From the NCBI GenBank assembly GCA_947459415.1, contig CANHDN010000003.1, positions 1 through 54,224 on the forward strand: DNA of 54,224 nt, read 5' to 3'. This DNA comes from Bacteroidota bacterium (GTDB taxonomy: Bacteria; Bacteroidota; Bacteroidia; UKL13-3). Each line of letters begins with the position of its first letter. Position 1 is the first letter of the stretch. A model generated the notes under the pieces. It saw only the letters and a program-made list of their open reading frames with translations. It ran no database searches and had not been told where the DNA came from. Made by a program: the position numbers and the translations under genes. Of the stretch, positions 21,204 through 54,133 are shown one piece after another.

Positions 21204-23777
21204 ATGCAAACCCCAACAACCCACTATATGGCCTATTTAGGTCTGCTTTTTTGGTGCATTTGTTCCTCCCATTTTTCTCGAGCACAAATAAATTATGAAC
21301 CATTTAACTATGGCACAATTGCAGGCAGTTTAGATACTTTAAGTACGTTTTGGAGTGCGCATAGAGCCGCAGGTAGCAATGCAGTTCGGTTTGAACCAAC
21401 TGGATTAGTGGCTCCAGTAGGTTTGCCAAATAGTAATGGAGGAAGTTTAAGATTTACAGGCGGAGCTGGCAGTAGAGAAGATATAAACAGAACATTTACA
21501 GGGCAAAACTCAGGAAATTTGTATGTATCTTTTTTACTAAACATAGACTCTTTGGCATCAGAAGACTACTTTTTTCATTTAAATACGTTTACCCATATTG
21601 CTCGGGTTTTTATCAAAAAACAAAGTAATACATTTCAAATTGCTTGTAGTAAAACCAATTCAACTGCTATTTACCAGGGTAGTTTTAACTTCAATACAAA
21701 TTATCTCATCCTAATAAAATATGCATTCACACCCAGTTCAAGCAATAACGATACGGTAAGTTTATGGGTGTTAACTGAACCAACAAGCACAGAAATGGAT
21801 GCAGGCACACCCAATAATAAAGACTTTTTGGGAACAGACCCCAATAATATTTTTTCTGTTTGTATTCGCCAAGGACTTACAGCTATGACAGGCAGAATGG
21901 ATGAATTAAGAATAGCTTCAACTTGGGAAGATGCTGTAGGTACTTGCGTTTGGAATGCGAACCAAACGTGGACAAATGGGTTTCCTACGGCCCAAACCAA
22001 TGTAAAAATCACCAGTAATTTTTTACCAGGCTCCAATTTTTCGGCATATAATTTACACCTCCAAAACCAGACAAAACTGATGCTTAATGGAAATGAATTA
22101 CACTTACATGGAAAAATAAGTGGAGATGGAAGAATTGCGGGATTCAATGGGGCCGGTATTCATGTTTATAAACCAGCTGGCACTATTTTTTTTGATAGCC
22201 TACAATGTGAATTTAAAACCATTCAATTACATGAACATGCAAGTTTCACCGTTGGATCTCCTGTCAAATTACAGGCGGGAAACAATGCAGGTACACTTAT
22301 ATTGAACAATTATTCCCATTTAAATACTGGCCACCAATTAGCTTTTCTATCTAATGAGTTTGGTTCAGCCAGATTAGCAAGTCTAGGCATTGGAGCAATA
22401 CTTACGGGTAAAATTAAAGTTGAAAAATATATTCCTGCGCGCAGGGCTTTTAGGTTTTTAAGTACCCCATTAACCACAGAAAATGGACTAGCCCATGCTT
22501 GGCAACAACACACACATGTTACAGGTAATGGGCCTGGATTTGACTCAACAGCTAGTAAAAATGCATCCATATTTACTTTAAATACACAGAATCAAAATTG
22601 GATTCCTTTTACAAATACACTTACTCAAAATTTAATTCAAGGTACTGGCTACCGTATTTTAATTCGGGGTGATAGAAATACAAATTTATATAGCAATAAT
22701 GCTTCACCTACTGCTTGTGTGCTCAGTGCAACTGGTTATCATCAAACTGGAGACAAAACGTATTCGAGTAATAGCATTCCTGCTATTAGCGACAGCATTG
22801 GAGGAATAAGTTTAATTGGTAATCCATTTCCTTCGGCCATTAATTGGAATGTGCTTACTAAAAATCAAATTTCGAGTACTTATTACACCTGGCGAGCTCA
22901 GGGAGGCAGTAATAATAAAGGTGCATATGTGAGTTATAATGCAAATGGTATGAGTAGCTCAGATGGAAATGTAAATGCTATCATATCATCGGGCGCAGCA
23001 TTTATGATTAAAACAATTGGTAGCAACCCAAGCCTTATCATTAAAGAATCAGATAAAATTGCTGCAAATGAAGGAAATTTAATATTAGGCAAAAATTCAT
23101 CAGCCAATATGCTTATCAAGTTATATGAATATGATAGTATTTTAACTGATGCTTTTTTTATATGTACACAATTAAATGCCAGCCTATTAAAAGACCCATA
23201 TGACTCCGAAAAATGGATGAACCCAGGTACCTCTTTGTATGGTGTAGATAGCATAAACAATAACTATGCTATTATGGCTATTAGCCAAAAACAAATACCT
23301 AAAAATATATCTTTAAGACTCACCAATACAGAGTTAAAATCTTACCAATTTCACATACATACAAGCAATGAATTTGAAAAAAAATGGTGGCTTGTTGACC
23401 AATTTCTTGAAAAAAAAATAGCACTAGATACCTTTACCCACTATGCGTTTCAAATTACTGAAAATAAAGCTAGCATGTTTGAAGATAGGTTTTTTTTAAC
23501 ACAAGAAAAGGGAATTGAAAACAGCATTTCAAAAACTGAAATCCCAAGCTTTAATATTTATCCAAATCCAAGCAATGGTTTTATCCAACTGAGCAGCAAC
23601 CCTAAGCAAGATATACCTATATACTATACCCTATCAAATTTACAAGGTCAAATTCTTCAAATTGGAGAATTAGAAAGCGACAAAAAAATAGATTGTAGCA
23701 GCATTGGTTCAGGCCTTTTTATCTTGAGTTTACAATCCATGAAGTATGCTTTGAATTTTAAGATAATGATTGAATAA
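21204..23777 (+). CDS. Large secreted protein with T9SS C-terminal sorting domain, unknown function
   Basis: It has a signal peptide region. The C-terminus FNIYPNPSNGFIQLSS...GLFILSLQSMKYALNFKIMIE matches the T9SS type A CTD. Confidence 0.75.
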   Translation: MQTPTTHYMAYLGLLFWCICSSHFSRAQINYEPFNYGTIAGSLDTLSTFWSAHRAAGSNAVRFEPTGLVAPVGLPNSNGGSLRFTGGAGSREDINRTFTGQNSGNLYVSFLLNIDSLASEDYFFHLNTFTHIARVFIKKQSNTFQIACSKTNSTAIYQGSFNFNTNYLILIKYAFTPSSSNNDTVSLWVLTEPTSTEMDAGTPNNKDFLGTDPNNIFSVCIRQGLTAMTGRMDELRIASTWEDAVGTCVWNANQTWTNGFPTAQTNVKITSNFLPGSNFSAYNLHLQNQTKLMLNGNELHLHGKISGDGRIAGFNGAGIHVYKPAGTIFFDSLQCEFKTIQLHEHASFTVGSPVKLQAGNNAGTLILNNYSHLNTGHQLAFLSNEFGSARLASLGIGAILTGKIKVEKYIPARRAFRFLSTPLTTENGLAHAWQQHTHVTGNGPGFDSTASKNASIFTLNTQNQNWIPFTNTLTQNLIQGTGYRILIRGDRNTNLYSNNASPTACVLSATGYHQTGDKTYSSNSIPAISDSIGGISLIGNPFPSAINWNVLTKNQISSTYYTWRAQGGSNNKGAYVSYNANGMSSSDGNVNAIISSGAAFMIKTIGSNPSLIIKESDKIAANEGNLILGKNSSANMLIKLYEYDSILTDAFFICTQLNASLLKDPYDSEKWMNPGTSLYGVDSINNNYAIMAISQKQIPKNISLRLTNTELKSYQFHIHTSNEFEKKWWLVDQFLEKKIALDTFTHYAFQITENKASMFEDRFFLTQEKGIENSISKTEIPSFNIYPNPSNGFIQLSSNPKQDIPIYYTLSNLQGQILQIGELESDKKIDCSSIGSGLFILSLQSMKYALNFKIMIE

Positions 23778-36529: not shown

Positions 36530-38368
36530 TTATTCTATCCAAATTTTATGTACAAACATCCCATTTTCGGTCTTTACAGACACCAAATACAACCCTGAGT
36601 ACAAGTCTTTTACATTAAACTGCAATTCTTTTGCTCCTTCACTTAAATCTCCAACAAAAATTTCTTTTATTTTTTTTCCTTGTAAATCTACAATTTCAAT
36701 CTCAAATCGTTGATTTTTTGAATTTGTAAAGCTTAAATTACTTACTCCTTGACTCGGATTTGGGAATAATGAAAAATTCATTTCACTTTTTAATTGCTCA
36801 CCTACACTCGTTGGTTCATCTACCTTAAATTCATCTATATAAATATTATTACCTCTTAAAGATTGAAGTTCAAATCTAACCCTCAGATTGGTGTAAGATT
36901 TATAGGGCGATAAATCAATGGTATACTTTTTCCATTCGCTGCTAGTTGGAATAAAGGCACTTGTAGAGGTAGGTCCGCTAGACAATTCTGCAGATAGAAT
37001 AGTTCTTGCCAATACTTCGGTTCGGCCAAAATTATCTGAAATAAAAACCCTCAATCTATCACCACTTGCTGTACTTCTTCTTGCATAAGAGGCATAAAAA
37101 CTAAGTGTTGGGTTTTTTAATTGGCTGATATCGATATTAGGAGAAGAAAATGCATTTCTCACATTGGTTCTCCATGTTTTTAGATTCATAGCTGCCATAC
37201 ATCCTGACCCAACTAAACTCACACTATTATTAATTTGCCATCCGCTATCTCCCGGACACATGTAATTTTCTTGAATCCAACCAGTACCTGCTAAACTGCT
37301 AACATCATAACCAAAATAATAAGGAGCTTTAACATTGGAAGGTGTTAAAGTTTTATATGATCCATCTGCATTAATTCCGGCAGCATTTAAATTGGTTGAA
37401 CTATAAATATTTGCTCTAAAATTAGGCATAATAGAATTAATCCTAGCTTTTTGACCTGGAGTAAACATATTCATGCAATTACCATCTGCATAGTCCATAT
37501 AATTTTTAACCAAATCTGGTAAATTGGGAACATCATTTGAACAAGAATTGCGAGAACCAGGACAACCTGTGGTAGCAGTTGAAACTGGCGGCGTATCGCA
37601 TACTTGATCCCCTTGAGATAAACAATTAGAGCTTGTACCACCAACACAACCGCCCTGAAATGGATGATATAAGCCAACCCAATGACCTGCTTCATGCGTA
37701 AAGGTTCTTCCCTGCTGAGATAAATCAACGTTTTCAATCACTCCCATTTGATCAGCTCTCATCATAACGCCATCTGTACTAGTTTGAGAGTTAATTTGAA
37801 AGGGAAATTGGGCGTAACCTAATACAATTGAACCAGGAGTACCACCAGAATTATTAATGGTGTTAACTACCCAAACATTAAAATACTTTCTTGCATCCCA
37901 ATAACTAATTGATTTTTGTGCATCTCTCGCATTATCTGTACTTAAAGTATATATTCTATTTACTCCATTTGTTGGCAAACCGTTTGGGTTAAATTGAGCC
38001 AATCTAAATTCAATTTCAATATCAGTGGCTAATGGATCCGTACTACTTCCTCCATTTGTTCCACTCATTTTCCTAAAATCTTCATTTAAAACTCTAATGG
38101 CGTCATTTAATTGCGCCTGTGAAATATTTTCTAATCCATGTTTGTGTAAAATATGGAAAACAACTGGGACATATCTTACCGTATTTTTTTTATTCTGAAT
38201 AGGCAATTTCGCTGCCATTTCACCTGCAACCTGTTGCTCTTTTATTAGCTCAGGAAACTGCTTTAAACTTTCTAAAAACATTTCATCAGTAGCACACTTA
38301 TTTACCAATTGTGCATGCGCAGAATTTGCTATGAAGTATGTTGCTGCAATCAAAAAAAATTTCTTCAT
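36530..38368 (-). CDS. M43 (pappalysin-like) zinc metalloprotease with T9SS C-terminal sorting domain
   Basis: It has a signal peptide and the zinc motif HEAGHWVGLYHPF. The middle region is Cys-rich. The C-terminus FSLFPNPSQGVSNLSF...GLYLVSVKTENGMFVHKIWIE is a T9SS CTD. Confidence 0.85.
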   Translation of the reverse strand: MKKFFLIAATYFIANSAHAQLVNKCATDEMFLESLKQFPELIKEQQVAGEMAAKLPIQNKKNTVRYVPVVFHILHKHGLENISQAQLNDAIRVLNEDFRKMSGTNGGSSTDPLATDIEIEFRLAQFNPNGLPTNGVNRIYTLSTDNARDAQKSISYWDARKYFNVWVVNTINNSGGTPGSIVLGYAQFPFQINSQTSTDGVMMRADQMGVIENVDLSQQGRTFTHEAGHWVGLYHPFQGGCVGGTSSNCLSQGDQVCDTPPVSTATTGCPGSRNSCSNDVPNLPDLVKNYMDYADGNCMNMFTPGQKARINSIMPNFRANIYSSTNLNAAGINADGSYKTLTPSNVKAPYYFGYDVSSLAGTGWIQENYMCPGDSGWQINNSVSLVGSGCMAAMNLKTWRTNVRNAFSSPNIDISQLKNPTLSFYASYARRSTASGDRLRVFISDNFGRTEVLARTILSAELSSGPTSTSAFIPTSSEWKKYTIDLSPYKSYTNLRVRFELQSLRGNNIYIDEFKVDEPTSVGEQLKSEMNFSLFPNPSQGVSNLSFTNSKNQRFEIEIVDLQGKKIKEIFVGDLSEGAKELQFNVKDLYSGLYLVSVKTENGMFVHKIWIE

Positions 38369-38409: not shown

Positions 38410-39498
38410 CTACGAAAAAGGTTGCATTTTATAGCTAGCATTCCTTAGATAATGATCAACTATGACCAAAGCAGCCATCGCTTCAACAATTGGAACCGCG
38501 CGAGGTACAACACAAGAATCATGCCTACCTGCTATACTAAAATTTACCTGATCAAGCGATTTAGTGATGCTTTCTTGTTCATGTTTAATGGATGCAACAG
38601 GTTTAAATGCGACTCTAAAAAATATATCCTCACCATTACTAATACCACCTTGTATACCTCCGCTATTATTTGTTTTGGTTCGAACCTCAGATTCATCTAA
38701 CCTAAAAGCATCATTCAATTCACTTCCCTTTCGCACAACTGAATCAAATCCAGATCCGATATCAAAACCTTTTACAGCATTAATACTCAACATAGCTTTT
38801 CCCAAATCTGCATGAAGTTTATCAAAAACAGGCTCTCCTAATCCAACAGGAACTCCCTTTATGACACAACTTACAATTCCACCTAAACTATCTCCCTCAT
38901 CTTTTGCTTTTAAAATAGCATCTTCCATCCATTTAGCTGCTTCCGGATCCGGACAACGTACCATATTAGTTTCGGTTTGATCCAAATTTAAATTAAAGTA
39001 TGGCTGTTGAACCTGGATAGTATGTATTTGAGAAACATATGCTTGGATATAAATTCCAAGTTTATTTAAGATCATTTTAGCAAATGAGCCCGCTAAAACC
39101 CGAGCAACTGTTTCCCTTGCCGATTGCCTACCTCCTCCTCTATGATCTCTAATTCCATATTTTGCCTCATAGGTATAATCTGCATGAGATGGTCTGAAAA
39201 TATTTTTGATAACATCATAATCAGATGATTTAATGTCTGAATTTCTTACCAAAATGGCAATGGGAGTACCCAAGGTTTTACCTTCAAAAACGCCGCTTAA
39301 TATCTCAAATTCTTCAGTTTCATTGCGCGGAGAACTCACCAAACTTTGGCCAGGTTTTCTGCGCAGTAAATCTCTCTTTATCAGCTCAAAATCTACTTCA
39401 ATATTGGGCAAACAACCATCTATTACCACACCAATGGCCGAACCATGGCTTTCACCAAACGAACTAATTGTAAAAATCTTACCAAATAAATTACTCAT
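38410..39498 (-). CDS. aroC: Chorismate synthase
   Basis: FGESHG, GRHDSCVVPRAVPIVEAM, RPGHADYTY-like (RPSHADYTYEAKYG) and GGGRQSARET are canonical AroC blocks. Confidence 0.95.
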   Translation of the reverse strand: MSNLFGKIFTISSFGESHGSAIGVVIDGCLPNIEVDFELIKRDLLRRKPGQSLVSSPRNETEEFEILSGVFEGKTLGTPIAILVRNSDIKSSDYDVIKNIFRPSHADYTYEAKYGIRDHRGGGRQSARETVARVLAGSFAKMILNKLGIYIQAYVSQIHTIQVQQPYFNLNLDQTETNMVRCPDPEAAKWMEDAILKAKDEGDSLGGIVSCVIKGVPVGLGEPVFDKLHADLGKAMLSINAVKGFDIGSGFDSVVRKGSELNDAFRLDESEVRTKTNNSGGIQGGISNGEDIFFRVAFKPVASIKHEQESITKSLDQVNFSIAGRHDSCVVPRAVPIVEAMAALVIVDHYLRNASYKMQPFS

Positions 39499-40039
39499 TT
39501 ACATTTGCCTCATTTTCGGTTTCATGGCTAAGTTTCCCTTTGGCAAAATCTGCAGCAAAATCTATAAATACTTTGTAAGCTTGGGTAAAAGAAAACTTTA
39601 CATCTCCATTCCTTTCTACAATATTTCTTCTTGCTAAGGTACGAACAAAATCTCTGCGAGACTCTGCATTTTTTAACTGATTATTGGCAGAAATTATTTC
39701 GATGTAGGCACTATTTTCAAAATATGAATCTAATTTTTCCATTTCAAATTCTGCAAATTGAATTTCCTCTAAAAAGTTTTTACCATCTTTATCTAACTCA
39801 TAACTCAAAATAGCAAAAAATAGACAGATATCTCTACTTAATTGCTCCGCAGTTTCATAACTTAACAAATAAGCATAATCACTTTTTATCTCTAATTCGT
39901 ATGAAAAACTTTCTTTAAAAAACTGCTCATAAAAAGAGCCTTGTTCCTTTAAGGATACAAATTTCGGATCGCTGGCAAGTATAAACTTACCACTCATTAA
40001 ATCGTTTACAATCTCTTTATGAAATCTAGGATAATCCAT
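39491..40039 (-). CDS. Small acidic helical protein, candidate MukE/MksE/JetB-like (KITE) partner of the SMC-like ATPase
   Basis: This 182-aa ORF is overlapped by 14 nt with the upstream gene and by 8 nt with the aroC start. The segment FILASDPKFVSLKEQGSFYEQFFKESFSYELEIKSDYAYLLSY resembles, from memory, the conserved N-terminal winged-helix block of MukE-type proteins. The functional call is an inference. Confidence 0.5.
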   Translation of the reverse strand: MDYPRFHKEIVNDLMSGKFILASDPKFVSLKEQGSFYEQFFKESFSYELEIKSDYAYLLSYETAEQLSRDICLFFAILSYELDKDGKNFLEEIQFAEFEMEKLDSYFENSAYIEIISANNQLKNAESRRDFVRTLARRNIVERNGDVKFSFTQAYKVFIDFAADFAKGKLSHETENEANVNE

Positions 40040-41228
40040 ATCTATTTATTTTTAGTTTTGGTACACGTAATGTCATTTGAGTGGTATTAATTAGTTGCTT
40101 TTCTGCTATTGCATCTAATTCAATACTAATACCTTCTTCAAAAAGCAGGGCAGTTAATGCAAAAAACTTATCTGTTTCAATGCTAGTATAGTCTGTTTTT
40201 AGAGTTAATCCGCACCATTCAAAGAAACTATCTAGCGGTAATTGACTCATCAACTTATTTTTATATAAATCTTTATTAAAAACCCATTTATCGGTTAACA
40301 TCATTGGGTCTTCCAAAATAATTGTCTCATCTATGGCATATTGCTCTAAATATTCCTTAGCATTTAGGTACATATCATTGCTATACGGATAGACACGCTC
40401 AATTTTAAAGACTTTAGGTAAGGGCGATTTATGTGGAGCCTTTAAAAACTCAATCCAACCAGTTAAAATGATGGATTCTGTTCTAATGCGCTCAATTAAT
40501 GGTAATAACTCATTGGTAAGTAGCTTAGATTGTTTTAGTAAATCGTCGTTGGTCTGAACCAAAAAGTTATAGGTTTTTTCGAACTGCAATCGAATTTGTT
40601 CATCATCAAAATTTAATCGCCTTACATTTACATATTGAGAAATATCAAACAATCTGTTGGTAATAGAATCTGCATGGTTAATATCTAAGATATTATTTAA
40701 TGGTGTAATGTAATAATCAATCCAAAAACTTGCTTTACGCACCTTTTCTTGGTAGTCTAATTTTTCAACATTCGATTTTAATTCTCTGGTTTCATTCAAC
40801 AAACGAATGGTATTTTTTTCTACTGCTTCACCAAATTCCTTTATTTCATTATAGAGATCATTAATTCTCTGACTTAAAATTAACTTATCTTTAGAAATCC
40901 CATCTTTTATTTTTCTAAATAATACAGCTATTGACTGTTCATATTTTTGGATGGTTTCTGGCAACAGTGGCCTGAATTCATTCAGAATAAATTCAAATAA
41001 TTTGTAATAGGTATCTCTAAATTCAAAATCATCTCCAAGTTTTCTTACTATTTTATACTCTAATAATTGAGTAAGTACATCATCCTGCCTATCCTTAAAA
41101 ACCTCCTGCAAACGCTCTTTTCTGATGATTTGATCCTCTGTTTGTATGTCAAACAAATCCTTTAGCGTTTCAAAATGTGCCGCTAAAAAATTTAATATCG
41201 ATTTTGGTTCAGCCTTTATCATAATCAA
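40026..41228 (-). CDS. Helical 400-aa protein, candidate kleisin-like (MukF/MksF/JetA-like) partner
   Basis: It starts 9 nt after the ATPase stop. Its composition is all-helical and its size is similar to MksF. I see no nuclease or other catalytic motif by eye. The functional call rests only on context and size. Confidence 0.4.
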   Translation of the reverse strand: MIMIKAEPKSILNFLAAHFETLKDLFDIQTEDQIIRKERLQEVFKDRQDDVLTQLLEYKIVRKLGDDFEFRDTYYKLFEFILNEFRPLLPETIQKYEQSIAVLFRKIKDGISKDKLILSQRINDLYNEIKEFGEAVEKNTIRLLNETRELKSNVEKLDYQEKVRKASFWIDYYITPLNNILDINHADSITNRLFDISQYVNVRRLNFDDEQIRLQFEKTYNFLVQTNDDLLKQSKLLTNELLPLIERIRTESIILTGWIEFLKAPHKSPLPKVFKIERVYPYSNDMYLNAKEYLEQYAIDETIILEDPMMLTDKWVFNKDLYKNKLMSQLPLDSFFEWCGLTLKTDYTSIETDKFFALTALLFEEGISIELDAIAEKQLINTTQMTLRVPKLKINRYGLS

Positions 41229-41237
41229 GCCATTACA

Positions 41238-43886
41238 TTAATTAACCGCTAAATTGCGCTCACCATACATTGCATTTACCTTTTCGTTTATGTTTATTTT
41301 TCCAGCATTCGGATAAATAAAATAATACTTACCAAAACCTGCAACCGCATCTGGCGCAGCAAAAATTGGAATAAAATTATGCTCTTTACAGAACCTCACT
41401 AGTTCTGGTCTATTTTGCTTGTCTATGGTAGCCACCTCATCAATAAATAGTGCAATTCGGTTTTCATCATCAAATAATGCCAAACGGTTAATAATGGTCA
41501 TGATGATTATCAATCTAATCATTTTATCGGTTCCATCCGATTCTATTTGTTCATTAAGATCTACGCGTTTAGAACTACCTTTTCTAGTTAAGTTTAAAGT
41601 AATATCAAACAAATCATCAAAATCTATTTTTTTACCCGCATCCAAATAGTTATCCAATACTTTTAGATTCTCAGAATGATCAAACTCAAACATTAATTGG
41701 CCGCGTACCTGCTGAATTTGGCTAATTTTCTTAACCTCTTCCACCAATCTTTTATTGTCTTCCAACTCAATTGTTAATGATTCAATATCTGATATTTTCG
41801 CCTGAGATAATTTACTATTAAATTTATTGTATACAAACTCCTTAAATTCATCATAGCGCTTTAATAAAGTATAGGCAGGATTGGCAAACTGTGCAGAAAT
41901 ATTTTCTAATAATGACGAAATAGAACGCTCCTTATCTTCAATTAAAGCAATCTCTTCCTCCACGTATTTAATAAAATCTTGTTCGTCGGCAAAGGTAGAC
42001 TGCAACTTGTCTCGAAGTTTTTCAAACAACTTATCTTTTGTCTGCTTTAACTCATTTCTATCAGATAAGTTAATGTTTATTTTTTTAAATAAATTATCTA
42101 AATCATCTTGAGTTTCAAACTCCTCTACTGCTAAACCTAAAACATCAAGGCTTTGTTTATACTCCTGTATTTCGCGAATTCTGCGTTCACGTTTATCTTT
42201 ATCTACAATTAAATCTTGAACCTCTAACTGCCTCTTGGCAATATCCTTAGCTAACTTTGATTGCTCAGATTCAATTTTTTGCTTCTCAGTATTTAATACT
42301 TGTAGCTCAGCTTTTAGTTTTTCAATAACTTTTTGTATGCTCGGTACCGATTTAATTTTTTGAATTTGGAACTTAATTCTTTCAATCTCTGAATTAATCT
42401 GCTGCAATTCCTTTGCAGATTTCTCGATATTTTTGGCAACCTCAAATAAATCTTGCTGACTTTTTAACTCACGTTTGGTATAGCTTAATTCTTCCTTTAT
42501 TTCCTCAACAGACTTAAAATCTTCGAATGTAAGCTGTTTGGTTAAATCAATTTCACCATCAAAAATGGTAAGTTTTTCAGACACCTTGTGAATGGCTTTT
42601 ACAACCTGCTTACCTGGTAAACTTTTTACTTGCTCGCTTAAAATTCCATTGAGCCATTTTCGATTTTCTTTATTCCCAGAAATTTTATTAATCAATAAAT
42701 CACCGTAATTTTTTATTTGATTTTCAAATTGACTAATCTGATTGGAAAGCTGAAATATACGTTGCTCAATCATGCTGCTATTCAATTTCTGAATTTCAAC
42801 CATCGTAAGCCTAGACTCTATCTCTTTTCTTTGCTTATCATAATTCCCCAATGCCTCTGTTTGTAATTCAATTGGGTCATAAGATTGAATAGTTTTTAAT
42901 TCTTCCTCCTTTGAATTTAACAACTCAGCCTTGCTATTAATTTCAGTTTCTTTATTACCTATTTTCCTATCAAATTCAGCTTTTTTAGGTATCAAGTTTT
43001 CATTAATTTCAGTATTTATTTTTGCAATATTAAGATTTCGCTCTGCCAACTGACTTTGAAGGGTGGGTAAAGTTGTTTCATAATTCGTATTGAACCCAAA
43101 ATATAATTGATTTATAATTCTGGCTTTGGCAGCATACTGGCTTACAACTTCGCGAAAATCTTCGAACTCATTTTTAACCGATTTTAAATTGCGGATCTCA
43201 TTATTTATCTTTCTTAAATCTATGATATCTTTTTTATTCTTTTGAGAAAAATTGAGTGATTCATTTTCCCGATTATCGGCAACAATTAAAGCCTCTTTTA
43301 AGTTCTTATTGGTAATTAATTTGGTATTAATAAGGTACCTGTAAATTCTAGAAAAATTATTACTTAAACCCTCTGTTTTAACATTATCATCTAACCAAAC
43401 AACTCCATTATTTCTTCTTCCACGCTGATATACCGTATTAAACACCTCGCGTTTGTCTTTAAATGCATCTAAACTGATGCCGTCTTTAGCAAGGGCTTCC
43501 TGAACCTCATCAAACTTTAATAGCTTTTTATTGGCATCAACAAAAAAATGTTCTTTATACTCGCTATTAAATCTGAAATACTCTAGCTCAGATTCTCCAT
43601 TCCGTTTCACCAGAATACAGTAATATGATTTTTTAAAAATCTCAAATACAATATAACTCTGATTTGGATTTGGAAAATAATGATGTAAAGTCTCTTTATC
43701 GCCGCGGCGCTGCCCGCTAAAGGTCATCTTATTTCCATCTATAATAAATAAGAAATTTAGCGCATAAATGAGGGTACTTTTTCCTATATTATTGGGGCCA
43801 ACCAATTGCAAGCTATCACAATCGTTTAGCCTAATTTCAGCTTTTCCGTATACCTTAGAATTTAAAATGGTTAAAGAAGTTAACAT
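41238..43886 (-). CDS. SMC/Rad50/MukB-like ABC ATPase with long coiled coil (compact, 882 aa)
   Basis: Walker A is LVGPNNIGKSTLIYALNFLF near the N-terminus. About 600 aa of K/E/N/I/L heptad-like sequence are interrupted mid-way by a non-coiled segment (LINKISGNKENRKWLNGILSEQVKSLPGKQVVKAIHKV...). The C-terminal head has a signature-like ESDGTDKMIRLIII followed by Walker B IALFIDEVATID. Confidence 0.75.
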   Translation of the reverse strand: MLTSLTILNSKVYGKAEIRLNDCDSLQLVGPNNIGKSTLIYALNFLFIIDGNKMTFSGQRRGDKETLHHYFPNPNQSYIVFEIFKKSYYCILVKRNGESELEYFRFNSEYKEHFFVDANKKLLKFDEVQEALAKDGISLDAFKDKREVFNTVYQRGRRNNGVVWLDDNVKTEGLSNNFSRIYRYLINTKLITNKNLKEALIVADNRENESLNFSQKNKKDIIDLRKINNEIRNLKSVKNEFEDFREVVSQYAAKARIINQLYFGFNTNYETTLPTLQSQLAERNLNIAKINTEINENLIPKKAEFDRKIGNKETEINSKAELLNSKEEELKTIQSYDPIELQTEALGNYDKQRKEIESRLTMVEIQKLNSSMIEQRIFQLSNQISQFENQIKNYGDLLINKISGNKENRKWLNGILSEQVKSLPGKQVVKAIHKVSEKLTIFDGEIDLTKQLTFEDFKSVEEIKEELSYTKRELKSQQDLFEVAKNIEKSAKELQQINSEIERIKFQIQKIKSVPSIQKVIEKLKAELQVLNTEKQKIESEQSKLAKDIAKRQLEVQDLIVDKDKRERRIREIQEYKQSLDVLGLAVEEFETQDDLDNLFKKININLSDRNELKQTKDKLFEKLRDKLQSTFADEQDFIKYVEEEIALIEDKERSISSLLENISAQFANPAYTLLKRYDEFKEFVYNKFNSKLSQAKISDIESLTIELEDNKRLVEEVKKISQIQQVRGQLMFEFDHSENLKVLDNYLDAGKKIDFDDLFDITLNLTRKGSSKRVDLNEQIESDGTDKMIRLIIIMTIINRLALFDDENRIALFIDEVATIDKQNRPELVRFCKEHNFIPIFAAPDAVAGFGKYYFIYPNAGKININEKVNAMYGERNLAVN

Positions 43887-46319: not shown

Positions 46320-46868
46320 CTAAAATCTAATTCTAAGATTAATACCTGAATAATTTCCAGCAAGACCCATTTGGTATACTGGTTTAACCTGAAAACTTAA
46401 CTTATCTGTTACATCAAACTCACGCAAATGAGCATCTACAGCAGCATCTATTAAATTAAACGCATACAAACCAACCATACCAATTACCGAAAGATCTCGG
46501 TTTTTTCTGTAATATTCTCGCAAACCAAATAACATTTCTGTAGGCACATTGGCATATTCTGGGTTAGTAACAGCTTCTTTATTTAATCGTTGCAAATAAG
46601 CTAACCTTACATCATCATAAAATTGCTGATTTTTTATAGTAGCATAGGCTAATACTCCAAACCCAACATAAATAACAGGAACCTTCCAGTACTTTTGATT
46701 GTAAATTTGTCCGCAACCTGGCATTAAAGATAACAAAGTAGCCTTTTGGGGAATTGTAAAACCACTTTTTGTTGCAGGGAGTTTAACAATGGAACTACTA
46801 TCTTTAGTTTGAGCAAATGCGCCAGAAAAAATAACAGTTAAAAGGAATATGAGCAGATGTTTCTGCAT
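46320..46868 (-). CDS. DUF5683-like membrane protein conserved downstream of parB in Bacteroidota
   Basis: It has a signal peptide and the LSLMPGCGQIYNQKYWKVPVIYVGFG block. Its ATG overlaps the parB stop (TAATG). Confidence 0.6.
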   Translation of the reverse strand: MQKHLLIFLLTVIFSGAFAQTKDSSSIVKLPATKSGFTIPQKATLLSLMPGCGQIYNQKYWKVPVIYVGFGVLAYATIKNQQFYDDVRLAYLQRLNKEAVTNPEYANVPTEMLFGLREYYRKNRDLSVIGMVGLYAFNLIDAAVDAHLREFDVTDKLSFQVKPVYQMGLAGNYSGINLRIRF

Positions 46869-47758
46869 TACAATAAATCAATTATTCGCTTTAAATCTTG
46901 CTGAGATTTAAATGGTATACTAAGCATTCCCCTCCCACGCTCATCTGCTTTAATCTTTACTTTCACATTCAATTTACCACTTAAAGTTTTTTGAAAATCA
47001 GAAAATCCATCCGGCATATTTGCTTTCTTTTTAACAGAAGCTGCGGGTTTTATATCTTCTTCTTTTCGCTCATGAGCGGCACGAACCAAGTTTTCAACAT
47101 CTCTTACAGACAAGCCATCCTCCATCATTTTTGAAAACAAATATTGCTGTTCATCCTGATTATCGATGTTAATAATGGCGCGTGCATGACCCATACTAAT
47201 TTGACCATCACGAATTGCAACCTGAATATTATCAGGCAATTTCAATAATCGTAAATAATTATTGACAGTAGATCTATTTTTTCCAACCCGATCACCCAAT
47301 TGTTCTTGATTTAATGAGCATTCATCTAACAATCGCTTATAACTAAACGCTATTTCCATCGCATTTAATTCCTCACGTTGAATATTTTCAATTAAAGCCA
47401 TTTCAAGCATTCCTTGGTCATCAGCCAATCGGATAAATGCCGGAATAGTGGTGAGTCCTGCTAATCTGGAAGCCCTTGTTCTTCTTTCTCCGCTAATTAT
47501 TTGATAACTATCATAACCTAGTTTTCTTACAGTAATAGGCTGTATAATTCCATGAACGCGAATAGAATCTGCTAATTCATTTAATGCCACATCATCAAAC
47601 TCTTCACGAGGTTGGAATGGATTGGCTTGAACCTGACTAATTAAAATTTCACTAATAGAATGAAGGGGCTTAGATTCAGTTGCTGTAATATCAGTGCTTG
47701 CATTTTCTAATAAAGCACTTAATCCTCTTCCTAATGCATTGCGTTGTTGTTTGCTCAT
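46868..47758 (-). CDS. parB: Chromosome partitioning protein ParB/Spo0J
   Basis: NPFQPREEF, GIIQPITVR, the ISGERRTRAS box (the GERRxRA arginine patch) and an HTH (LNQEQLGDRVGKNRSTVNNYLRLLKL) are present. Confidence 0.93.
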   Translation of the reverse strand: MSKQQRNALGRGLSALLENASTDITATESKPLHSISEILISQVQANPFQPREEFDDVALNELADSIRVHGIIQPITVRKLGYDSYQIISGERRTRASRLAGLTTIPAFIRLADDQGMLEMALIENIQREELNAMEIAFSYKRLLDECSLNQEQLGDRVGKNRSTVNNYLRLLKLPDNIQVAIRDGQISMGHARAIINIDNQDEQQYLFSKMMEDGLSVRDVENLVRAAHERKEEDIKPAASVKKKANMPDGFSDFQKTLSGKLNVKVKIKADERGRGMLSIPFKSQQDLKRIIDLL

Positions 47759-47784
47759 GTCTTAATTTGTTCGCTTAAAAAATG

Positions 47785-48591
47785 TTAGTTTAAATCGTGG
47801 TTACTTTCCATCATATTGGTTTTGTTTAAACCGTTTTTATGCAAAAGTTCCTTGGCTAGGTTTAAATAATTCACCGCTCCTTTGCTTTCAGCATCGTGAG
47901 TGATAACTGCCAATCCAAAGCTCGGAGCCTCACTCAATTTGGTGTTACGCTGAATAATGGTATCAAAAACCAAATCTTGAAAATGCATTTTAACTTCTTC
48001 CACAACTTGATTACTTAATCTTAATCGCATATCATACATCGTTAGCAATAGGCCTTCAATTTGTAATTCTGTGTTTAAATTACTTTGAATGATTTTAACA
48101 GTATTCAACAACTTACCCAAACCCTCTAAAGCAAAATATTCACATTGAACAGGTATGATGACAGAATTGCTGGCTACCAAGGAATTGGTTGTAATTAATC
48201 CTAATGAAGGAGAACAATCAATAATTACAAAGTCATATAAACTCTTAACCTTATCCAACGCATACTTCATGATGCGTTCACGATTAGGGACATTAATTAA
48301 CTCAATCTCTGCACCAACCAAATCAATATTGGAAGGTAAAATATCTAAATAGGCAAAATCAGTACCCAAAATTGCATCTTTCATTGGAACCTCATTAACC
48401 AATACTTCATACAAGCCTGTACGAATGTCTTTTGGATCAAAACCAAGACCAGATGTTGTATTCGCCTGCGGATCAGCATCTATTACCAAAGTTTTAAATT
48501 CCAAAACAGCTAAGCTAGCTGCCAAATTAATGGCGGTAGTAGTTTTTCCAACCCCACCTTTTTGATTTACAATTGAAATAATTTTACCCAT
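47785..48591 (-). CDS. parA: Chromosome partitioning ATPase ParA/Soj
   Basis: The deviant Walker A is VNQKGGVGKTTTAINLAASLA, with DADPQANTTSG and IIDCSPSLG. Confidence 0.93.
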   Translation of the reverse strand: MGKIISIVNQKGGVGKTTTAINLAASLAVLEFKTLVIDADPQANTTSGLGFDPKDIRTGLYEVLVNEVPMKDAILGTDFAYLDILPSNIDLVGAEIELINVPNRERIMKYALDKVKSLYDFVIIDCSPSLGLITTNSLVASNSVIIPVQCEYFALEGLGKLLNTVKIIQSNLNTELQIEGLLLTMYDMRLRLSNQVVEEVKMHFQDLVFDTIIQRNTKLSEAPSFGLAVITHDAESKGAVNYLNLAKELLHKNGLNKTNMMESNHDLN

Positions 48592-51737: not shown

Positions 51738-51815
51738 GTTTTGTAAATATTAAATTGCTGTTACCAATTTATAGCCCTATTTTGCAGCACAAAAGTATTA
51801 TTAAAAGCTCGTTTC

Positions 51816-52865
51816 ATGAAAGAAATAATTCAAAAAGATTTTGAAATTTACTTTGGCTCAGATGTATTAGAGAAACTCGCTGAAATACTGATAAATAAAG
51901 AATACTCTAAGGTATTTGTTTTAGTTGACAACAATACAAAAAACTATTGTTGGCCAATTTTAAGTCCGTACCTTGTAAATTTCCAACTAATTGAAATTGA
52001 ATCAGGAGAAAACCATAAAAACCTTCATAACGCAGAGAAAATTTGGACAAGGTTACAGCAATTTCAGGCAGACAAACATGCAGTTATCATCAATTTAGGT
52101 GGAGGTGTTATTAGTGATTTAGGTGGATTTGTTGCAGCAACCTATAAACGAGGGATTGATTTTATTAATATTCCAACTACCCTACTAGGCATGGTAGATG
52201 CAAGTATTGGAGGAAAACTAGGTATAGATCTCCATGCATTGAAAAATGCTGTTGGAGTGATAAAAAACCCAAAATACATTTTTATAGATCCCATATTCTT
52301 AAATACATTACCTGTAAACGAGAGACGCAATGGATTAGCAGAGGTTTGCAAACATGCATTAATTGATGATAAATCTTTATTTGAAAAATTACTCCATATT
52401 GAAGAAAAAGAAAACCTGGATGCTTTACTTTTTCAATCCATAAAAATTAAGGTTAAGATTGTAAAAAAAGATCCATTTGAAAAAGATTTAAGAAAATCAC
52501 TCAACTTTGGACACACGGTTGGCCATGCAATAGAAACCTTTTCTTTAAAAAATGATTCAAATCCTCTCAAACATGGCGAAGCAATTGCTATAGGAATGAT
52601 TTGCGAAGCATATATGAGTGCTGCTATTCAGGGTTTAACTTCTTCTGAACTTAAAAGTATTTGCAAATATTTCTTAAATCGATTTCCTAAGTATAAAGGG
52701 AAATTACCTGAAAATGAATTAATTGAATACATGAGAAATGATAAGAAAAATGAAGAGGGCTTCATTAATTTTACATTACTAAAAAAGATAGGTAAAGCCA
52801 AGATTAATTGCCATTGTCATGATGAATTAATTATAAAATCACTCGCATTTTACAAGAATTTATAA
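51816..52865 (+). CDS. aroB: 3-dehydroquinate synthase
   Basis: LGGGVISDLGGFVAATYKRGI, PTTLLGMVDASIGGK and NFGHTVGHAIE are present. Confidence 0.92.
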   Translation: MKEIIQKDFEIYFGSDVLEKLAEILINKEYSKVFVLVDNNTKNYCWPILSPYLVNFQLIEIESGENHKNLHNAEKIWTRLQQFQADKHAVIINLGGGVISDLGGFVAATYKRGIDFINIPTTLLGMVDASIGGKLGIDLHALKNAVGVIKNPKYIFIDPIFLNTLPVNERRNGLAEVCKHALIDDKSLFEKLLHIEEKENLDALLFQSIKIKVKIVKKDPFEKDLRKSLNFGHTVGHAIETFSLKNDSNPLKHGEAIAIGMICEAYMSAAIQGLTSSELKSICKYFLNRFPKYKGKLPENELIEYMRNDKKNEEGFINFTLLKKIGKAKINCHCHDELIIKSLAFYKNL

Positions 52866-52867
52866 TT

Positions 52868-54133
52868 ATGTCTAGGGTCACTAAACAAAAAGTTAATATT
52901 ACTTCTCAAAGTGAAAACTTAGTTGCTCAAATTCAATTACCCGCCTCAAAAAGTATCAGTAATAGGGCACTTATTTTAAATGAAATTTTAAAAGTAAAAT
53001 TAGGCAAAGGAATTGTGTTGCTTAATGTATCTGATGCCGATGATACACAAATCTTAATAACAGCCATAGCCCAATCAGGTGGCACAATTTATCTTGATAA
53101 TGCTGGCACTTGTATGCGTTTTTTATGTGCATATTTTGCTGCCTTACCAGGAATTAATGTTGTGTTAACTGGAAGTGAGAGATTACACGAAAGGCCCATT
53201 CATTCGCTTGTAAAAGCCCTACAAAAAATGGGAGCAGAAATAAATTATTTAAGTAAAGAAAATTGCTTACCCATATCAATAGTAGGTAAACAACTAAGTG
53301 GCGGTTTAGTAAAAGTAACAGGAAATCAATCAAGCCAATTTATCAGTGCTTTATTATTAATTGCACCTCTTTTAACAAATCCATTAGAAATTCAGGTAGA
53401 AGGAGAAATAGTCAGTAAAGAATATATTAAACTATCTCAGTTAATGCTTCAAGAGTTTGGAATACCATGTCAAATATCTGAGGATTACAGGTTAATTAAA
53501 GCTTATTCAATACATCAAGAAAATATTCCGGAAACATACAACATTGAGGCAGATTGGAGTAGCGCTGCATTCTTTTATGAAGCAGCTATTTTGGCAGAAA
53601 AAGCAGACCTTTTTTTTGAAAACTTACAATTAAATTCTATACAAGGTGATGCTATTTTAGCCAAATGGATGGAGGAATTTGGAATAAATAGTATTCAAAA
53701 GGAAAATGGTGTAGCAATTAGTAAAATAAGGAAGGGTAAGCTAAATATAAATAAAATTGATTTCACTAATCATCCAGATTTAGCTCCAGCTATTATTTGT
53801 GCAAGCGCTGGAGCCTCTATTCCTTTTTGTGCAGAAGGAATCAGTAGCTTACAAGTGAAGGAAAGCAACCGAATTATAGCATTAAAAAATGGACTTGATT
53901 TGTTACATTTTAAGGTTAAGACAACTGAAAATACCCTATGTCATGATGGATTGGCTCATGCCTTTTATCAAAATTCCTGCATAAACACAGAAAACGACCA
54001 TAGAATTACGATGGCTTTTAGCATGCTAGCGATTGCGCAATCAAATATTGTATTACTTGAAAGTGAATCTGTTAAAAAATCTTTTCCTAACTTCTGGATT
54101 GAAGCTAAGAAAATTGGCTTAACGGTAAAATAA
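52868..54133 (+). CDS. aroA: 3-phosphoshikimate 1-carboxyvinyltransferase (EPSP synthase)
   Basis: LPASKSISNRALIL, NAGTCMRFL, SSQFISALLL, ESNRI and DHRITMAF are present. Confidence 0.92.
   Translation: MSRVTKQKVNITSQSENLVAQIQLPASKSISNRALILNEILKVKLGKGIVLLNVSDADDTQILITAIAQSGGTIYLDNAGTCMRFLCAYFAALPGINVVLTGSERLHERPIHSLVKALQKMGAEINYLSKENCLPISIVGKQLSGGLVKVTGNQSSQFISALLLIAPLLTNPLEIQVEGEIVSKEYIKLSQLMLQEFGIPCQISEDYRLIKAYSIHQENIPETYNIEADWSSAAFFYEAAILAEKADLFFENLQLNSIQGDAILAKWMEEFGINSIQKENGVAISKIRKGKLNINKIDFTNHPDLAPAIICASAGASIPFCAEGISSLQVKESNRIIALKNGLDLLHFKVKTTENTLCHDGLAHAFYQNSCINTENDHRITMAFSMLAIAQSNIVLLESESVKKSFPNFWIEAKKIGLTVK

Follow-up and report, generated by a model that had tools for sequence, protein, structure and literature searches.

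A compact MksBEF-like SMC operon without a neighbouring nuclease gene at the lepB-aroC locus of a Bacteroidota bacterium

The stretch of DNA analysed here, hereafter the window, comprises 54,224 nucleotides (nt) of a Bacteroidota bacterium of the UKL13-3 lineage (assembly GCA_947459415.1, contig CANHDN010000003.1, positions 1 to 54,224 of the forward strand) and carries, between lepB and aroC, a three-gene module encoding an SMC-type ATPase, a kleisin-like protein and a KITE protein. The three open reading frames (ORFs) are all intact and lie co-directionally on the minus strand. They comprise an MksB-like SMC-type ATPase gene of 882 aa (41238..43886), assigned from its ORF together with homology and fold, an MksF/MukF/JetA-like kleisin gene of 398 aa counted from its ATG (40026..41222), assigned from an AlphaFold2 (AF2) model and Foldseek matches, and an MksE (KITE) gene of 182 aa (39491..40039), assigned through the Pfam family PF21980. 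As a preliminary description of the sequence had claimed, the genes are tightly packed, with 15 nt separating the ATPase and kleisin genes (41223..41237) and an overlap of 14 nt between the kleisin and MksE genes. The middle protein had been given as 400 aa; an ORF of that length does exist, with a TTG start at 41228, two codons 5' of the ATG at 41222, but the homologues of the kleisin-like protein, at 397-401 aa, match the 398 aa obtained from the ATG.

The 182-aa protein, for which a resemblance to MksE had previously been suggested, was matched by the Pfam MksE family (PF21980) over its full length, with an E-value of 3.1e-19 and 70.4 bits against a cut-off of 27. The match spans residues 7-161 of the protein on model positions 3-161 of 163, and the same family was also found on MksE orthologues at other loci.

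For the middle protein, AF2 returned a model (predicted local distance difference test score, pLDDT, 66) with an N-terminal winged helix, a helical bundle, a disordered linker and a C-terminal winged helix. The N-terminal winged-helix domain occupies residues 6-68 (41019..41207, minus strand; helices at 6-15, 17-30, 35-45 and 50-55, strands at 59-62 and 65-68; pLDDT 72-88), and the C-terminal domain residues 312-394 (40041..40289, minus strand; helices at 317-326, 333-344 and 350-361, plus four strands; pLDDT 76-87). The best eight matches of this model among 350,542 PDB chains searched with Foldseek were all to MukF (3euh, 9gm9, 9gm7, 3rpu, 1t98) or JetA (8q72_E, 8as8_E), with probabilities of 0.77-1.0. 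Winged helices at both ends, MukF and JetA as top folds and the PF21980 match of its partner together uphold the earlier proposal of a kleisin-plus-KITE pair. A conserved linear motif is located in the linker (40341..40397, minus strand), inside a low-pLDDT stretch of the AF2 model (residues 245-311), with R276, Y280, N282, D283, M284, Y285, A288, E290 and Q294 invariant in 36 homologues; by the position of the MukE-binding region in MukF, it is a candidate MksE-binding segment. At the level of sequence the protein belongs to a closed family: a HMMER profile searched against 1.84 billion representatives retrieved 111 clusters of about 390-423 aa and no bridge to MukF, MksF or JetA, and neither the protein itself nor ten of its distant members matched a Pfam family.

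The head motifs proposed for the 882-aa protein, all of which could be read from the translation on the minus strand, are a Walker A motif GPNNIGKST (residues 30-38; 43773..43799), an ABC signature-like SDGTDK (residues 783-788; 41523..41540) and a Walker B motif LFIDE (residues 813-817; 41436..41450). Each was invariant in 29 homologues of 68-93% identity, with invariance around the signature extending from E782 to K788. The Walker B motif keeps its catalytic glutamate (D816-E817) and is followed by a D-loop-like ATID. Homologues sharing 69-93% identity are nearly all 872-901 aa in length.

In the AF2 model of the ATPase, an N-terminal coiled-coil arm of long helices (residues 215-395; 42702..43244, minus strand; pLDDT mostly 76-92, with a dip near residue 365) leads into a hinge-like segment (residues 396-459; 42510..42701, minus strand) at which the long helices break and pLDDT is low, and from which a C-terminal arm emerges (residues 460-694; 41805..42509, minus strand; breaks at 583-595 and 629-634; pLDDT mostly 80-92 to approximately residue 680). 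A coiled coil broken near its middle had been described, and a hinge-like segment of ~64 aa is indeed present; the arms, however, total ~415 aa rather than the ~600 aa then estimated, and an arm of 181 residues would measure ~27 nm. The hinge segment is rich in invariant residues, including N400, K401, P424, G425, D443, G444 and D447, and contains no cysteine between residues 396 and 459, hence no zinc hook. In Foldseek searches of the PDB, the four best matches to the ATPase model were all MukB (E-values of 1.9e-11 to 3.5e-10; top match 9gm9_A), followed in rank by Rad50, JetC, Wadjet-II JetC and Smc5/6. The high pLDDT of the arms and the full-length Foldseek alignments to MukB are compatible with an antiparallel fold-back of the coiled coil, but do not prove it.

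Sequence profiles were less informative for the ATPase. In Pfam, the window protein yielded weak P-loop matches and no DUF3584 match at E-values of up to 1, whilst its orthologue from Nonlabens, 46% identical over the full length, was recognized as DUF3584 (PF12128; 2.5e-16, 58.9 bits, cut-off 31), and PF12128 is precomputed on some close homologues. A profile of the ATPase family aligned by hhalign with E. coli MukB along the Walker B stretch only (55 columns, E 9e-4). No Pfam match to MukE, MukF or MukB was obtained for any member of the trio. In PADLOC the best match of the ATPase was JetC3 at an E-value of 0.24, and the other two proteins were unmatched. Among Pfam and NCBIfam models, the ATPase matched neither SMC_N nor SMC_hinge (TIGR02169 was reached at an E-value of 0.89), and neither ScpA nor ScpB was found among the trio; by these profiles the trio is not of the Smc-ScpAB type. 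A motif scan for Smc across 1.6 Mb of related loci returned UvrA only and is uninformative on the presence of Smc. A scan of viral contigs with the ATPase gave only two 49-residue P-loop matches of 48% identity (L086:1410-1553 and L087:1397-1540), which are not relatives of the module.

These data also bear on whether the 882-aa protein might instead be another kind of coiled-coil ABC ATPase, for example a repair protein resembling Rad50/SbcC or RecN or a sensor of the LmuB type from Lamassu, lying beside two unrelated partners. Weak, coiled-coil-driven matches to LmuB, SbcC, Rad50 and ASRP profiles, and the presence of Rad50 among the fold matches, would be in keeping with such an identity, yet MukB ranks above Rad50 in the fold search, and the ATPase is accompanied by a KITE of the MksE family and a kleisin resembling MukF and JetA. 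Rad50/SbcC and RecN were ruled out by these partners, by a hinge without zinc-hook cysteines and by the lack of an SbcD/Mre11-like neighbour. Lamassu was ruled out by the lack of an LmuA-type effector gene and by the intact D-E of the Walker B motif, an E-to-Q change at this position having been reported as general in LmuB (PMC10586767). Among the profile checks suggested beforehand, Pfam found MksE; the LmuB matches were weak (E-values of at least 0.05) and confined to the coiled coil. We therefore regard this explanation as highly improbable.

Relatives of the module were retrieved by scanning one genome per GTDB species, and were found in 229 GTDB species (Bacteroidota) and in hundreds of protein clusters. 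Eighty loci were kept, nearly all with Bacteroidota-type labels and a handful evidently mislabelled; almost all are metagenome-assembled genomes (MAGs), with the complete genome CP012155.1 also among them. All three genes are held by 69 loci, and in every one of the 69 the order is ATPase-kleisin-MksE, an order that, as noted previously, is unlike mukFEB and jetABCD. The flanks of the trio vary. The next most common neighbouring cluster occurs at 17 loci only, so that no fourth gene is conserved beside the trio, and the suggestion that a novel effector may be encoded nearby was not borne out.

A nuclease gene is nonetheless part of the family. In seven of the 80 loci, a JetD/MksG-like Toprim gene of 261-279 aa was found between the ATPase and kleisin genes (L006:2624-3421, L022:12659-13441, L023:12659-13441, L035:7460-8272 and L050:12656-13492, together with L014:4034-4723 and L047:7883-8536, which are cut by contig ends). 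At L006, for instance, a 266-aa gene fills the junction that measures 15 nt in the window. An alignment of these proteins has as invariant residues C140, E143, N144, K164-Y165-G166-R167, D186-Y187-D188 and G191, which is a Toprim-like E...DxD pattern. Individual members fell below threshold on the Pfam models JetD_C and DUF7281, and one scored 2.4e-5 on PADLOC JetD1; among 94 clusters of the nuclease family, P0444 and P0355 matched JetD_C with 41 and 27 bits, respectively (cut-off 22), and P0427 matched DUF7281 with 30 bits (cut-off 27). With known JetD profiles at ~380-430 positions, the Toprim protein is a truncated form with a reduced N-terminal part. Denoting the ATPase, nuclease, kleisin and MksE genes B, G, F and E, the order B-G-F-E also occurs in Nonlabens xiamenensis, a record that carries no MAG label, in Phaeodactylibacter sp., in a Muiribacteriota MAG and in three further contigs, the Nonlabens, Phaeodactylibacter and Muiribacteriota copies being 33-47% identical to the window trio in full-length alignments. 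At every locus inspected the JetD-like gene lies inside the operon and never alone, and the four-gene loci tend to adjoin AbiEii, a DNA methylase with a WYL protein, SLFN/AlbA_2, or a transposase.

In contrast, the window contains no JetD-like ORF and no Lamassu-type effector, as had been described; its junction measures only 15 nt, and tblastn detected no remnant of the nuclease gene either. In a neighbour-joining tree of the ATPases the nuclease carriers are scattered, and three of three outgroups carry the nuclease. At one further locus (L019:12903-13058), the 431-bp gap between the ATPase and kleisin genes still contains a 52-aa remnant that aligns with the C-terminal end of the Toprim protein of L022 at 58% identity, which we take as direct evidence of nuclease-gene decay. 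The scattered carriers, the nuclease of all three outgroups and this remnant indicate that the nuclease has probably been lost repeatedly; the simplest history would start from an ancestral operon of four genes that shed its nuclease more than once. Since the JetD-like gene persists in a scattered minority of the family, the earlier label of a Wadjet lacking JetD can be taken literally, as a loss. Within the clade, divergence of the nuclease far outpaces that of B, F and E, by a factor of 2.5-4 relative to B; the ATPases of L006 and L014 are 82% identical and their nucleases 56%, with 87% and 63% for L035 and L047.

The ATPase/kleisin junction was found to hold unrelated genes at two loci from other lineages. 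In L073 (12700-17115) it contains two large proteins of 318 and 1149 aa, apparently secreted and with C-termini resembling sorting domains of the type IX secretion system (T9SS) by eye, and in L030 (11422-12042) a 206-aa membrane protein. The junction thus seems, from these arrangements, to be permissive for inserted genes, and it is a point at which the operon can be interrupted.

MksBEF is reportedly a family of MukBEF-like SMC complexes, described by Petrushenko et al. in 2011. It has been defined as having shorter coiled coils than MukBEF and a wide but sporadic distribution (PMC4255302), and short coiled coils being a known trait of MksB, the compactness of the window ATPase is not in itself new. 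The window module shares with MksBEF an SMC-like ATPase with arms shorter than those of Smc or MukB, a kleisin and a KITE protein of the MksE Pfam family, and the preliminary reading of an MksBEF-like, Wadjet-minus-JetD module stands, given the MksE match, the kleisin fold and MukB as the best fold of the ATPase. In Pseudomonas aeruginosa, MksBEF has no nuclease and plays a part in organising the chromosome (PMC7485682); the window trio likewise lacks a nuclease gene and is chromosomal and outside any island. It differs from MksBEF in its gene order (B-F-E as opposed to F-E-B), in an ATPase and a kleisin too diverged for the Pfam, PADLOC and NCBIfam models, and in its vertical conservation within a Bacteroidota clade, where MksBEF is sporadic. 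In the most extensive Wadjet-group census, operons were admitted only with MksB proteins of >890 aa and MksF proteins of 400-1200 aa (PMC7617805); at 882 and 398 aa, the window proteins lie under these filters, so the family would have been excluded. Full-text literature searches yielded no account of either a Bacteroidota form or a 'type IV' form.

With the anti-plasmid Wadjet systems of types I-III (JetABCD or MksBEFG), the module has in common the SMC-kleisin-KITE core, fold matches to JetA and JetC and, in some members of the family, a JetD_C/Toprim protein in the operon. The window itself, however, lacks JetD, the PADLOC Wadjet models miss its trio, the nuclease of the family has 260-280 aa compared with ~380-430 positions in the PADLOC JetD profiles, and its order is C-D-A-B in Jet terms. 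E. coli MukBEF is the nuclease-free member of the group that became a chromosomal condensin, with the gene order mukFEB and a MukB of 1486 aa with long arms. MukB and MukF are the best structural matches of the window ATPase and kleisin, although F and E share no detectable sequence similarity with their E. coli counterparts, and B aligns at the Walker B stretch only.

Further compact relatives were found on plasmids. By tblastn, the ATPase was matched over its full length, at 21% identity, on the plasmids pSR76 of Salinibacter ruber and pBASL58 of Pseudomonas sp. Leaf58, each time within an F-E-B-G operon (pSR76 51063-63804, proteins of 410/216/879/231 aa, locus L088; pBASL58 849460-862072, proteins of 441/238/942/336 aa, locus L089). 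In both operons the second gene encodes a PF21980 MksE and the fourth a DUF7281/JetD_C protein, and all are annotated 'hypothetical'. PADLOC made no confident Wadjet call for either, though it matched the fourth gene of Salinibacter to JetD1 (1.5e-7) and its ATPase weakly to JetC; at these two loci Pfam DUF7281 acts like a JetD-type Toprim domain. By hhalign, the nuclease profile of the window family matched the fourth Salinibacter gene (98% probability, E 8e-15), and the kleisin profile the first (E 1.7e-4, 307 columns). The plasmid operons thus resemble the window family in subunit size, but are plasmid-borne, retain the nuclease and the canonical order, and are only ~21% identical to the window proteins. 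On the basis of these matches, the window module represents a rearranged, nuclease-less branch of a broader compact class of MksBEF(G) type.

In the window, the trio is preceded by parA, parB, a DUF5683 gene, dapB and lepB, and followed by aroC, a secreted protease and topA, a synteny common to its closest relatives. The gene for chorismate synthase, aroC (38410..39498, minus strand), identified from its ORF and translation, has its start codon overlapped by 8 nt by the end of the MksE gene (39491-39498; junction ATGAGTAA). It is therefore probably co-transcribed with the trio, and this shikimate-pathway gene appears from the overlap to be translationally coupled to the SMC operon. The low G+C content (~18-28%) first reported from sampled lines of the ATPase gene is below that of the module as a whole, which at 30-32% falls inside the window range of 28-40%, so that composition gives no signal of foreign origin. 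A foreign or island origin was rejected in view of this ordinary G+C content, of housekeeping flanks that are syntenic in the closest relatives and of the viral scan with its two P-loop matches alone.

Rates of nonsynonymous substitution (dN) of B, F and E relative to L002 and L004 were 0.09-0.12, with synonymous substitution (dS) saturated; these values are the same as for topA, parB and dapB, and below those of aroC and lepB. Purifying selection of this grade speaks against a functionless, decaying remnant of a four-gene defence operon. Such decay could be read from the lost nuclease gene and from the four-gene locus L090 (6855-7981), adjacent to Transposase_mut, where the kleisin was called as two fragments of 118 and 196 aa and the copy looks like one in decay. 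The window trio, however, combines three intact ORFs and invariant head motifs with a dN of ~0.1 at saturated dS, and deeply diverged relatives keep the trio intact, at 69 loci in all, which makes a functionless remnant the least credible of the alternatives. The homology or fold of each subunit, the conservation of the operon, the presence, absence and decay of its nuclease gene and the selection acting on it are established in this analysis.

A more substantial alternative is that the trio still serves immunity, directed at plasmids or other mobile DNA, and acts either without cleavage, by silencing or compaction, or through a nuclease supplied in trans. Silencing or compaction of foreign DNA has been proposed for Smc5/6. 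The Toprim-bearing orthologues resemble Wadjet/MksBEFG-type systems and sit among defence-type genes, and nuclease loss is recent in some branches, as seen from L006 relative to the window and from the L019 remnant. Against this, a copy in trans would be unusual for a JetD-like gene that lies inside the operon at every locus inspected, no fourth gene is conserved, and the trio is inherited vertically in a locally syntenic setting, evolves at a rate like that of topA and parB, and is coupled to aroC. We consider a continuing immune role unlikely, albeit far less so than the alternatives above.

Our preferred reading is that the trio is a miniature MksBEF, free of a nuclease and domesticated to act on the chromosome. 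We assign this reading a probability of roughly 65%, a figure that blends our confidence in the identity of the complex with that in its chromosomal role. That the trio forms an MksBEF-type complex without a cis-encoded nuclease is very probable; as to its present function, we lean towards the chromosome rather than defence, because the genes are under purifying selection, are coupled to aroC, have housekeeping neighbours and stand in contrast to their four-gene relatives.

Several observations weigh against this reading. The ATPase heads are poorly modelled (AF2 pLDDT <50), and the Foldseek E-values of the kleisin are marginal (2e-3 to 1.5e-2) with low TM-scores. Neither the window ATPase nor the window kleisin scored above threshold for any Pfam, NCBIfam or PADLOC family, and sequence searches of the PDB with each of the trio, by single sequence and by profile, returned nothing or coiled-coil noise. 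In hhalign comparisons, the MksE-family profile was negative against E. coli MukE (E 0.52), as was the kleisin profile against E. coli MukF (E 0.32). The absence of the nuclease gene applies to the 54-kb window, and a copy may lie elsewhere in the genome. The position near parAB is not kept beyond the closest relatives, and a defence module of long residence could likewise show slow evolution and housekeeping neighbours.

By analogy with MukBEF and JetABC, the assembly of the complex, its loop extrusion and its chromosomal role are inferred as follows. The ATPase would dimerise at its hinge, and the kleisin would connect one head at its neck with the other at its cap, whilst its N-terminal winged helix would pair two motors and MksE dimers would bind its linker. 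ATP binding and hydrolysis would then drive DNA entrapment and loop extrusion. The ancestral form is envisaged as a four-gene B-G-F-E operon with a short JetD/MksG-like Toprim nuclease, probably restricting plasmids or other mobile DNA. In the window lineage the nuclease would have been cleanly lost, and B, F and E would have stayed under housekeeping-grade purifying selection in a lepB-BFE-aroC array near parAB. The complex would now most likely be non-cutting and condensin-like, functioning in chromosome folding and segregation, as proposed for the MksBEF of P. aeruginosa.

The module is not categorically new, since MksBEF complexes lacking a nuclease have been described, as have short arms in MksB. 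As a variant it is distinct, with a permuted operon and minimal subunits, and is missed by current profiles; its family documents nuclease loss in progress. A review has proposed that MksBEF and MukBEF derive from Wadjet through the loss of JetD (PMC10586767), a speculative transition that is not known to have been caught in progress before. Here, close lineages with and without the nuclease, together with one remnant, occur within a single family, and both the signature of selection and the genomic context shift from defence-island-like at four-gene loci to housekeeping-like at three-gene loci. As the nuclease is present or absent among close lineages, the question of a passage from defence to condensin becomes testable by comparative genomics and genetics. 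The small subunits would also suit structural and single-molecule work, and a family that current defence-finder profiles miss constitutes a blind spot of those profiles.

A bolder and more tentative proposal, to which we give somewhat less than even odds, is that a clade of uncultured freshwater Bacteroidota domesticated a mini Wadjet-like system of plasmid defence into a core chromosomal SMC complex, in the strongest version as the main condensin, complementing or replacing Smc-ScpAB. If so, the junction between B and F would be a scar left by the loss of the nuclease gene, and sister lineages would keep every intermediate, from four genes through a fast-evolving nuclease and a remnant to the clean trio. 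The family would then represent an independent replay of the proposed Wadjet-to-MukBEF transition, and the complex, at 882 + 398 + 182 aa, would be among the smallest SMC-kleisin-KITE holocomplexes seen.

Some further features of the window were recorded. A scan for sigma-70 promoters returned fewer sites than shuffled sequences and is uninformative, sigma-70 being the wrong promoter type for Bacteroidota. Two other shikimate-pathway genes, aroB (51816-52865) and aroA (52868-54133), lie 12 kb from aroC on the opposite strand. The DUF5683 gene (46320-46868) is directly 3' of parB with a 1-nt overlap; its position is kept in L002 and L004, and its product diverges fast (54-61% identity). The cumulative GC-skew minimum coincides with a flip in gene orientation at ~51740-51815, 3-4 kb past parAB (46868-48591), which suggests a replication origin nearby. 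The intergenic gap at the minimum measures 78 bp, however, and the turn in GC skew (~52 kb) coincides with the gene-strand switch; DnaA-box-like sites numbered 20 in the window compared with 19.2 expected, none of them near the minimum, and oriC is not shown. Two large, probably secreted proteins of 857 and 612 aa are encoded at 21204-23777 and 36530-38368, respectively. The former has a Por_Secre_tail (T9SS) domain, and the latter, by eye, a zinc-metalloprotease-like motif HEAGHWVGLYH and a similar C-terminal tail. The 612-aa protein is fast-evolving, with 61-65% identity where topA has 86%.

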